Assembly: GCA_011364985.1 (NCBI GenBank)
Contig: RDOC01000001.1
Span: forward strand, 320,001 to 384,000
Source: Candidatus Thorarchaeota archaeon
GTDB taxonomy: Archaea; Asgardarchaeota; Thorarchaeia; Thorarchaeales; Thorarchaeaceae
Reading direction: 5' to 3'
Length of the DNA: 64,000 nt
Positions 5,931 through 48,881 of the stretch are shown one piece after another (within the stretch, counting starts at the first letter, position 1; each line of letters starts with the position of its first letter). Under the pieces are notes generated by a model. It made no database searches, was not told the origin of the DNA, and saw only the letters and a program-made list of their open reading frames with translations. Position numbers and translations under genes: made by a program.

Positions 5931-6698
5931 ATGAAGAAGCTTTTAGTCACTCTGACCCCTGCCGAAGGCAAACGTCTCATTGCCAAGGGCCTATTAGCAA
6001 CCAAGCAGGTGAAACACGCTTTAAAGAGCGGTTATCTCTGTGTGACTCTTGGAAGTACATCATCCTATCTTGTGGAAGAGATTCTAGGAGAGTATGACAA
6101 GACGAGGCATCTTGCAGGACTTGTTGTTCCTAAAGGCCCTGCAGTCACCGATGGAAAAATGCGAATGACTGATGCAATATTCCATAAGGGTCTACTTCTT
6201 GAAGGGAAGAAGGTTATTGATGTCTTGGATGAGCTTGGGCCTAAGGATGTCATAATTAAGAGCGCAAATGCATTGGGTTCTGACTACATTCCAATTGTAC
6301 TGCTAGCGAGCAATACTGCCGGAACAATAGGAACATTCCTTGGGGCTGCTGCTGCACGAAACATTACTGTTATCATGCCAGTGGGTCTGGAGAAATCCAT
6401 ACCTGCAAGCTATAATGACTTCAACGCGGAGTTCGGAATGAACGATTGGGATTATGCAATAGGAACCCCAGTTGGAGCAATATCTATTCCCAATACGATT
6501 GCCTTTACCGAGATTGAGGCTCTGGATGTGCTATTCGATGTGTTCACCATTCCCATCGCTGCAGGAGGGCTGAATGGTGCAGAAGGTGCTGTCACCTTCT
6601 ATGTAAGCGGCGACGACAAGAACATCAAAGATACCCACGATTTCCTTCTTACAATCAAGGGAGAACCATTATTTCCCCATGTTAAGCATGTCAAGTGA
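5931..6698 (+). CDS. Conserved hypothetical protein
   Basis: 255-aa ORF with protein-like composition (TLTPAEGKRLIAKG, PVGLEK, AAGGLNGAEG); heads a co-directional run with the ABC genes. Confidence 0.7.
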   Translation: MKKLLVTLTPAEGKRLIAKGLLATKQVKHALKSGYLCVTLGSTSSYLVEEILGEYDKTRHLAGLVVPKGPAVTDGKMRMTDAIFHKGLLLEGKKVIDVLDELGPKDVIIKSANALGSDYIPIVLLASNTAGTIGTFLGAAAARNITVIMPVGLEKSIPASYNDFNAEFGMNDWDYAIGTPVGAISIPNTIAFTEIEALDVLFDVFTIPIAAGGLNGAEGAVTFYVSGDDKNIKDTHDFLLTIKGEPLFPHVKHVK

Positions 6699-46674: not shown

Positions 46675-47397
46675 CTATTCTAATCGTTTCTGGAACATCA
46701 TCGCAATTGGAGCATTGGCCTGTCTCCATTCAGCAAGCTTTCCTTCGTAGTTCAGTGGAACTGGATGACGCCCATGATTTCCAATTACTATGAAGATAGT
46801 GCCAGCATGTGCCTGCTTAAGGAGGACCTTGACCCAGTTGTCAGTTCTTCTTACTATCTTTTCAAGGAGAGTCTTTGGTGGAGTCCTATGACCGTACTGA
46901 GCATACAGACTCTCAAAGTCAAGAAAGTGCATGTAGAGGAATTCTGCGCGAGCGACATGTTTAGTTGCCTCGACGTAGGTTTGCATATCGTCACGTCTGT
47001 TGACAGTGTAGGCGGGATCAAAACCGAAAGTCAGCATATCGTCCTCCCTGCATATGACCTGAACGGCCTTTCCAAAACCTCGTGTATACTCAACGAGATG
47101 AAATGATTGAGATGGTCCACGCAATATCTTGGAAACAAGAGGTATTGCATAGGGGTCGTCAGTTTCAATCAGCGCAAGAGCTTCCATGTTTTTGATCAAT
47201 GCCTCTGGCTTGTAAACGACAGCCTCGAATAGACCGAAGTTGTCAATCACGATAACAATCAATCTACCGGACTTGAACTTGGCTAGAATCTCGGCGTTCG
47301 CAGGCGGCATTTCTTCTGGAATTTCCATTCCCATTAGATTCAGAATTGTTGAGGGAAATTCGGCGGCTGAAGTTCTAACCTGCGGAAACGACACCAA
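46675..47397 (-). CDS. Minimal alkaline-phosphatase-superfamily fold protein, degenerate
   Basis: LIVIVIDNFG, FLYMHFLD and IVIGNHG (cf. TADHG). Confidence 0.6.
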   Translation of the reverse strand: MVSFPQVRTSAAEFPSTILNLMGMEIPEEMPPANAEILAKFKSGRLIVIVIDNFGLFEAVVYKPEALIKNMEALALIETDDPYAIPLVSKILRGPSQSFHLVEYTRGFGKAVQVICREDDMLTFGFDPAYTVNRRDDMQTYVEATKHVARAEFLYMHFLDFESLYAQYGHRTPPKTLLEKIVRRTDNWVKVLLKQAHAGTIFIVIGNHGRHPVPLNYEGKLAEWRQANAPIAMMFQKRLE

Positions 47398-47560
47398 GAG
47401 ACCTCACAGAGCAACTATGAATCCTTTCATTTATTGGATTTCTGTATCTACATAAAAGCCGGAGATTTTTGTGCTTATACTTATCCCTGATGCCCTCAAC
47501 TAATGGTATCTGATGGAAGCATTAATAGACATAGAAACGCAGTGCGCTTGTGGACGTGCC

Positions 47561-48514
47561 ATGACAATAAAGAACATTGTGTATAATCAAAGTATCAAAT
47601 TTATTCTCTCCGGCGGAAAAGGAGGAGTAGGCAAAACCAGCGCTGCAGGAGCAATGGCCGTCCTTTCTGCTAAGAGCGGACTAAGAACTCTTGTATTGTC
47701 GACCGATCCAGCGCACAGTCTTAGTGATAGCTTCAAGCAAGACCTCTCAGGAGGAGAGATTATACCTGTGGAGGGCATAGACAATCTGTGGGGCATGGAG
47801 ATCAGCTCTGAGAAAGGTATGCAGGATTTTCAAAACGCCATGGATGGAGGAGGGACGGAGATGGAGATGGCGTCCCAACTTCTTGGAAGCATAGGAGATA
47901 TGACTCCTCCAGGATCAGATGAGGCGATGGCCTTTGGGAAGATCTTGGAATTTCTTGATGATATGTCATATGACAGAGTCATTTTCGATACAGCGCCCAC
48001 CGGTCATACACTTAAGCTACTTGAACTTCCCGAGCTATTGGACAGCTGGCTTGGAAAAGTCATAACAATGAGACAACGACTCAGTTCAACCCTTGCAGGA
48101 ATTAGAGCCATGTTGGGCGGGCGAGAACAAGAAGAAACGGCATGGGAAATGCTTCAGCAAACAAAGGAGAAGATAAAGTCAGCAAAGCTGGAGCTACAAG
48201 ACCAAGAGAAGACCCAATTTGTTATTGTGATGATACCGGAAGCAATGGCGGTCTTCGAAACCCAGCGGCTCTTGTCCAGTCTTAATACATGGAATATCCC
48301 AATGAATAACATAGTCGTCAATCAGCTGATCCCTGAGAATCCGGGCTGCGAATTTTGCAGCTCAAGAAGACAAATGCAGCAGAGGAACTTAGTAGACATC
48401 CGCGACCTCTATCAAGATATAGACATCGTAGAAGTGCCACTTCTTAACACAGAAATAGTGGGGATTGATAGTTTGGAGAATCTTGGCAGAATACTAATCG
48501 GGGAGGATCAATGA
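47561..48514 (+). CDS. Get3/TRC40/ArsA-family ATPase (single-domain, Get3-like)
   Basis: GGKGGVGKT, STDPAH, PGSDEAMAF, DTAPTGH, ETQRL, CEFC dimerisation motif and Met-rich helical subdomain. Confidence 0.93.
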   Translation: MTIKNIVYNQSIKFILSGGKGGVGKTSAAGAMAVLSAKSGLRTLVLSTDPAHSLSDSFKQDLSGGEIIPVEGIDNLWGMEISSEKGMQDFQNAMDGGGTEMEMASQLLGSIGDMTPPGSDEAMAFGKILEFLDDMSYDRVIFDTAPTGHTLKLLELPELLDSWLGKVITMRQRLSSTLAGIRAMLGGREQEETAWEMLQQTKEKIKSAKLELQDQEKTQFVIVMIPEAMAVFETQRLLSSLNTWNIPMNNIVVNQLIPENPGCEFCSSRRQMQQRNLVDIRDLYQDIDIVEVPLLNTEIVGIDSLENLGRILIGEDQ

Positions 48515-48612
48515 TGCGGTATATCTGGAAGAAAAGGCTGATAGGTCTATTCTTTGTATTCCTTTTCATAGCGTCAGTTTTTGCCGCCCTTTCACAAATC
48601 TATAAACCATAG
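48511..48612 (+). CDS. 33-aa single-transmembrane microprotein coupled to the Get3-like ATPase
   Basis: MMRYIWKKRLIGLFFVFLFIASVFAALSQIYKP*; GGAGG at 48502-48506; ATGA overlap with the ATPase stop; basic N-terminus followed by a hydrophobic stretch of about 18 aa. Confidence 0.7.
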   Translation: MMRYIWKKRLIGLFFVFLFIASVFAALSQIYKP

Positions 48613-48634: not shown

Positions 48635-48778
48635 CTAAACACCTTTAACACGTTTCACAACAGGAGGCCGTATCTTGTAAAGAATTCTTCCTCCGCAATA
48701 GGGACACTTCACACCTGGGAGTGTCTTGAGGCCTTCAGGAGTGACTTCTTTTGAACAGGTATGACATATATAGACCAT
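48635..48778 (-). CDS. rpo12: RNA polymerase subunit Rpo12 (RpoP)
   Basis: YICHTC...KCPYCGGRILYKIRPPVVKRVK; GGTGA SD. Confidence 0.93.
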   Translation of the reverse strand: MVYICHTCSKEVTPEGLKTLPGVKCPYCGGRILYKIRPPVVKRVKGV

Positions 48779-48881
48779 GGAATCACCACACGGGCCGACT
48801 GATTTCTTCGACCATTCAAGCAAAAGCGCGAGACTTGAGTTTATGAAGCTTTTCTTATAGTGCATCGAACTCCCTCTTGCA

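Follow-up and report, generated by a model that had tools for sequence, protein, structure and literature searches.

A conserved 32-residue membrane microprotein of tail-anchored type encoded directly behind get3 in Thorarchaeota and other Asgard archaea

Introduction

In a Candidatus Thorarchaeota genome, the stop codon of a gene for a Get3-like ATPase overlaps the start of an open reading frame of only 32 or 33 codons. The locus raises the question of whether so short a frame is a gene at all and, if it is, what its product does beside an ATPase of this kind. Archaeal Get3 homologs bind tail-anchored (TA) proteins in vitro, as given in PMC6593721 with reference to Sherrill 2011 and Suloway 2012. 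The window analyzed here (the whole stretch of 64,000 nt, G000:C11:320001-384000) comes from an assembly of 1.7 Mb that is 74% complete. We examined the identity of the ATPase, the evolution and predicted anatomy of the small frame behind it and the occurrence of the pair in Asgard archaea, and weighed several roles for the small protein.

The ATPase gene and its product

The get3 gene lies at 47561..48514 on the forward strand and encodes a single-domain P-loop ATPase of 317 aa. Alignment of orthologs places the start at the Met of 47561 in all of them, and the upstream ATG at 47513 is unused. The product matches PF02374 (ArsA_ATPase) with an E value of 1.7e-86 and 290.7 bits (cut-off 24.3), and reaches 291.9 bits with the NCBIfam model TIGR00345 (GET3_arsA_TRC40), for which the cut-off is 135. 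Its solved archaeal relatives in PDB are MtGet3 (3zq6, 7.6e-75) and MjGet3 (3ug6, 1.8e-71), and fungal and human Get3/TRC40 chains match at 4e-61 to 4e-44. The two-domain algal ArsA1 (5zme) is also matched (3e-121), the other best PDB relatives all being single-domain Get3. Labels of the close relatives of this ATPase are almost all Candidatus Thorarchaeota or Promethearchaeota (the Asgard phylum).

Several motifs were traced through the alignments. Both cysteines of the CEFC motif (C263 and C266 of the CxxC) are invariant across 30 Get3 orthologs and align with the CxxC of MtGet3 3zq6, and would form a zinc site at the dimer interface. A Met-rich segment that precedes the PPG-DEAM motif is kept in the ortholog alignment and aligns with the helical subdomain of 3zq6, and would form the helical insert of the client groove. 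The orthologs also keep a D-L-Y-x-D motif, which we take to be a version of the acidic motif that contacts Get1, Get2 and Get4 in yeast Get3.

An identity as the arsenite-pump ArsA was considered and rejected. That protein is a tandem of two domains encoded in an ars operon, whereas the ATPase of the window has a single domain, scores 129.6 bits with the arsenite-pump model TIGR04291 (cut-off 650) and has no ars genes among its neighbors, which encode BacA, an unnamed 240-aa protein, RpoP, a radical SAM enzyme and aSUI1. Judging from these comparisons, the ATPase is of the Get3/TRC40 type and not an arsenite-pump ArsA. The original prediction, which had described a Get3-like ATPase with a CxxC motif and a Met-rich helical region and with no ars genes nearby, is borne out on each of these points. 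In addition, two ArsA-family paralogs in tandem were found at another genomic site in many Thorarchaeota (e.g., G018:C29:193361-195311 and G022:C67:24993-26942); their identity to Get3 is 27-33%, and their open frames span ~337-341 aa.

A small gene behind get3

The get3 stop codon TGA (48512-48514) overlaps two in-frame ATGs, at 48511 and 48514, and a Shine-Dalgarno-like (SD) GGGGAGG, read from the sequence, is located within the last get3 codons (48500..48506, forward strand). The distance from GGAGG to the ATG is 4 nt for the first of these starts and 7 nt for the second. Use of 48511 gives a product of 33 aa, the length originally proposed; in orthologs of the microprotein, however, the start corresponds to the second ATG, and the product is therefore likely to have 32 aa (48514..48612, forward strand). 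The SD-preceded frame overlapping the get3 stop was thus correctly recognized, whereas its length probably needs correction.

The 32-codon gene and get3 make up a two-gene unit between genes of opposite strand, those for the 240-aa protein, RpoP and the radical SAM enzyme all being encoded opposite to get3. Scans for sigma-70 promoters and intrinsic terminators gave hits at shuffle level, and such scans are inappropriate for archaea. Two of the neighbors deserve a brief description. The gene for the 240-aa protein (window 46675-47397, reverse strand) is divergent from get3, and its product has no Pfam or PDB match; the sole match is a weak one in NCBIfam to the C-terminal part of phosphopentomutase (E 5e-5), and membership of the alkaline-phosphatase superfamily is suggested. 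Beside get3 this gene is kept in Thorarchaeota as well as in families 12, 7 and 21, some of which lack the microprotein. The gene for the zinc-ribbon protein RpoP (Rpb12; window 48635-48865, reverse strand) converges on the microprotein gene, and its listed ORF of 76 aa is probably too long, since the Pfam match begins at residue 32, a Met with which the conserved ribbon starts.

To judge the small frame, 80 loci were checked (79 fetched by the ATPase and the window's own), 75 of which are of Thorarchaeota type (ATPase identity of at least 66%). Among these, 71 could be judged, i.e., contained the get3 3' end and at least 110 nt downstream of it. The small frame is present in all 71, has 31-38 codons (mostly 32) and starts between -8 and +14 nt from the get3 stop in every case. 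When the 16 nt upstream of the starts were compared, a purine run of the GGAGG/GAGG type was seen at the same place in most of the 71 loci. No such frame follows get3 in the remaining five of the 80 loci, which come from other Asgard lineages and, in one case, from a contig labelled Bathyarchaeota.

Further examination of 44 distinct 32-codon versions showed that pN averages 0.32 and pS 0.78, with synonymous sites saturated, and that dN/dS has a median of 0.24 overall and of 0.15 for pairs with dS below 1. Entropy at the three codon positions is 28.7/19.1/45.6, so that variation is concentrated at third positions. Stops interrupt four of the five alternative frames in 32 to 44 of the 44 versions, and the fifth (forward +2) in only 10. 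With a profile of the peptide, one copy each was found in 81 of the 85 genomes of family 1 (Thorarchaeota), to which the window's genome belongs, and the only genome sampled from a second family of the same order was matched too. The four genomes missed in family 1 are assemblies that are 71-83% complete; get3 is at a contig end in one of them, and the other three lacked a get3 match in these searches as well. At one locus (L072, G363:C292), a partial second copy of the helix without the basic N-terminus lies ~540 nt downstream of the first (contig 6384-6458, reverse strand) and is probably a decaying duplicate.

On this comparative evidence, the small frame is a real gene under purifying selection; both the conservation of a small ORF downstream of Get3 orthologs and the bias toward synonymous substitution are what the check proposed with the original prediction had looked for. 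That the frame in the 3' flank of get3 is open by chance, for which only its very short length speaks, is extremely improbable and, as far as sequence comparison goes, refuted, given that length, stop position and residues are kept in 71 of 71 loci despite saturated synonymous sites and that the SD is conserved.

Features of the predicted microprotein

The anatomy of the peptide was derived from 67 distinct sequences. Following the Met is an N-terminal stretch of ~8 residues with a net charge of +4.1 (compared with +0.8 for the tail), in which positions 2 and 6 are always basic (Arg or Lys) and position 8 carries Lys in 65 of the 67 sequences. It leads into a helix of 22 residues, with a maximum 19-residue hydropathy of 2.7, which ends three residues before the C-terminus. 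The remaining three residues are an aromatic one, then Lys/Arg and then Pro/Gly. The basic N-terminus, single transmembrane (TM) helix and short tail of the original prediction are seen in the family as well.

A Ser in the middle of the helix is invariant in all of the sequences. Relative to it, the most conserved positions are Phe-7, Leu-4, Phe-3, Ser0, Ala+4 and Leu+7, and the conservation moment peaks at 105-110 degrees, which places them on one helical face. From this periodicity, the conserved face is best read as pointing to a specific contact with another helix in the membrane rather than to a generic anchor. With one predicted TM helix within ~30 residues of the C-terminus and no other hydrophobic segment, the microprotein falls into the tail-anchored topological class, and the charge bias (+4.1 vs +0.8) predicts an N-in orientation, that is, a cytosolic N-terminus. 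Membrane entry would be post-translational, because a chain of 32 aa would be finished before its helix leaves the ribosome tunnel. Topology and insertion route, like a membrane partner and the binding to Get3, are properties that we infer for the microprotein.

No Pfam match was obtained at E values up to 10 for the window peptide and six relatives, and nothing meaningful was found for the peptide in NCBIfam, in ESM Atlas or, with the family profile, in PDB. Full-text literature searches did not find a paper that describes a get3-linked microprotein. The peptide had been called hidden, and this holds for its name, which in public data is at most 'hypothetical protein' or 'uncharacterized integral membrane protein', but not for its presence, since ten 50%-identity cluster representatives are already contained in public protein sets.

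Distribution across Asgard families

The sequence downstream of get3 was also inspected at 47 loci of 28 further Asgard families. A small ORF (sORF) encoding a basic N-terminus and a single helix was observed within ~55 nt past the get3 stop in family 2 (of the same order) and in families 12 (all five loci), 15 (both loci) and 6 (one locus), and was not seen in the other 24 families sampled. These linked sORFs align with the Thorarchaeota peptide without internal gaps and have Ser or Thr in the same column; the family 12 versions are without Lys at position 8. A broadened profile found a copy in 16 of 19 genomes of family 12, in 4 of 4 of family 15 and in the one genome of family 6, always within ~55 nt after get3 wherever the get3 position was listed, and the one genome of family 2 carries the linked sORF. 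On the Get3 tree, the linked state requires at least four changes (gains or losses). The get3-microprotein pair hence occurs in five Asgard families, at four or more separate places on this tree.

The weight of the adjacency differs among families. Synteny extends over the whole block (240-aa gene, get3, sORF and rpoP) in Thorarchaeota and family 12, so that counts inside these clades are not independent and adjacency there is weaker evidence. In families 15 and 6, the pair persists and the flanking genes of Thorarchaeota were not found within ~0.7 kb on either side.

Unlinked look-alikes were detected by the broadened profile, away from get3, in family 21 (6 of 6 genomes) and family 33, which means that the peptide can be encoded at a distance from get3. 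In family 21, they have 27-28 aa, a TTG start and their own SD, and stand alone between unrelated genes (L061:2120-2203, reverse strand; L062:2118-2198, L063:1370-1450 and L075:154-240, all forward strand); at L061, the neighbors are a 370-aa gene and small-GTPase genes. In one family 21 genome (G150; 99% complete and fragmented into 540 contigs), the peptide was found and no full-length ArsA-family gene. Divergent full-length ArsA-family genes are present in families 29 and 30.

Proteins of 46-49 aa and of tail-anchor type were also noticed in families 9 and 23, not near get3 (L190:1184-1327, L191:1220-1366, L192:1140-1286 and L193:1206-1343, all on the reverse strand). They have an Arg/Lys-rich N-terminus of ~20-25 residues, a mid-helix Ser and a Pro-Leu-type end like that of the family 12 peptides, and they may be longer relatives of the microprotein. 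On a contig labelled Bathyarchaeota (L183, WJJB01000065.1), the Get3 groups with Asgard family 27 with a support of 100/99, suggesting a binning error or gene transfer.

Comparison with known systems

The nearest systems for comparison are Get3/TRC40 and its clients, as represented by the eukaryotic GET pathway and by MtGet3 (3zq6) and MjGet3 (3ug6), and the ATPase of the window is clearly of this type. Like TA clients, the microprotein has a single, very hydrophobic C-terminal helix that would lie too near the C-terminus for co-translational targeting. Unlike it, known Get3 clients are not encoded beside get3, and none so small has been described for archaea in the papers searched.

With Get1/Get2 (WRB/CAML) and Ylp1/DUF106, the microprotein shares the character of a membrane protein whose basic, cytosolic N-terminus could meet Get3 at the membrane. 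It differs from them in having one helix instead of three, no coiled coil and no sequence relation. An identity as Get1/WRB or Get2/CAML was rejected, as the microprotein has one helix, ~8 cytosolic residues and no Pfam or NCBIfam match. A search of the window's genome with PF04420 (Get1/CHD5) gave no match and was uninformative, control genomes being equally without a match.

A resemblance to RAMP4/SERP1 (PF06624) had also been proposed. The microprotein is likewise small and tail-anchored, with a basic N-terminus and a Ser-containing helix, but it has half the length, the window peptide and six relatives gave no PF06624 match at E values up to 10, and the family profile found no SERP chain in PDB at the same limit; the proposed likeness received no support from these searches.

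The bacterial proteins KdpF, CydX and AcrZ have ~30-50 aa and a single helix with a conserved face, and are co-transcribed with the complex that they bind. The microprotein belongs to the same size class and resembles them in its single helix, its conserved face and its encoding beside a presumed partner. The partners of KdpF, CydX and AcrZ are, however, membrane complexes, whereas the gene upstream of the microprotein encodes a soluble chaperone ATPase.

Possible roles of the microprotein

The best explanation, to which we give somewhat less than even confidence, is that the microprotein is a tail-anchored cargo made beside Get3, which then acts in the membrane by helix packing. Because no more than a few bases lie between the get3 stop and the start of the small gene, whose ribosome-binding site is inside get3, the two proteins would be made side by side from a single mRNA. 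The microprotein would be complete before its helix emerges and would be handled post-translationally, as tail-anchored proteins are. Newly made Get3 would capture the helix in its groove and deliver it to the membrane, where the inserted microprotein would pack its conserved face, centred on the invariant Ser, against another membrane helix. We place this reading first for the reason that the peptide would need post-translational handling and that a chaperone for such helices is encoded on the same mRNA a few bases upstream. In its favor are the tail-anchor features of the peptide, a Get3 of the TA-binding type and linkage in five Asgard families, while the helical periodicity of conservation and the unlinked copies argue for a membrane role of the peptide's own. 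Against it is the observation that, in most Asgard families, no linked copy is detectable beside the Get3 gene. A complex prediction (Get3 dimer, peptide, two ATP and Zn, with Get3 and peptide alignments) returned a score close to zero, and we counted it neither for nor against.

The near-fixed Lys before the helix and the coupling, with its matched protein amounts, fit a stable partner of Get3 as well as a cargo. As the main alternative, it is possible, though doubtful, that the microprotein is a membrane tether or receptor subunit, whose basic N-terminal stub docks Get3 as a minimal analogue of the Get2/CAML basic motif, or whose helix pairs with Ylp1/DUF106 to form a landing site for Get3 together with an insertase. 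The receptor of archaeal Get3 is not known, and the homology of Ylp1/DUF106 to Get1 is no more than remote (PMC5868721). A gene for a DUF106/EMC3_TMCO1 protein (Ylp1-like, Oxa1 superfamily; 61 bits, above the cut-off) is present in the same genome at G000:C11:397954-398430, ~30 kb away and ~14 kb beyond the window end, and its product would be the obvious candidate insertase alongside Get3 and the peptide. A tether is also consistent with the nearly fixed basic positions 2, 6 and 8, with translational coupling, which suits matched amounts of Get3 and peptide, with the conserved helix face, which implies a membrane partner, and with the D-L-Y-x-D motif kept in Get3, if its role is the one assumed above. 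However, Get2 contacts Get3 through two helices, whereas the microprotein offers only ~8 cytosolic residues. Basic residues before a helix are a general positive-inside signal, the Lys at position 8 is missing from family 12, most Asgard Get3 genes are without a linked copy, and the peptide gene is not beside the DUF106 gene. In its most specific form, this reading would make the microprotein the missing membrane-side partner of archaeal Get3, its basic stub docking Get3 and its conserved face pairing with the Oxa1-type Ylp1. We consider this unlikely; if true, the one-helix tether and Ylp1 together would be a minimal precursor of the Get1/Get2 receptor of eukaryotes, in the archaea most closely related to them.

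The microprotein may, alternatively, be an unrelated small membrane protein that merely shares the get3 transcript, serving as a subunit or regulator of another complex and entering the membrane by a YidC-like route or spontaneously. The syntenic block in Thorarchaeota and family 12, which includes the functionally untied rpoP, is consistent with this, as are the unlinked look-alikes of families 21 and 33 and the fragmented genome G150. But the pair outlasts the other Thorarchaeota neighbors in families 15 and 6 (within the ~0.7 kb compared), recurs across the Get3 tree and keeps the small-gene start no more than 14 nt from the get3 stop in every judgeable Thorarchaeota locus, and we rate the chances of an unrelated protein as low.

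It is very unlikely that the peptide regulates Get3 itself, its helix filling the client groove of fresh Get3 as a placeholder and stabilizing the closed dimer or tetramer until clients displace it. Coupled synthesis would suit such a role, as would the tetramer of the archaeal MjGet3, in which helices are enclosed (PMC6593721). For a placeholder, however, hydrophobicity would suffice, and neither a conserved face nor an invariant Ser nor a fixed tail at the C-terminus would be called for.

Whether as the cargo that we tentatively favor or in another role, the microprotein is of interest for Get3 biology in archaea, for which neither the native cargo nor the membrane receptor is known in the literature (PMC6593721, PMC5868721). 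It represents a protein family covered by no Pfam or NCBIfam model. Beside get3, several Asgard lineages have kept by selection one specific 32-residue peptide of tail-anchor type, and get3 and the microprotein would provide a defined natural pair, in the archaea closest to eukaryotes, with which a role as cargo, tether or regulator can be tested.
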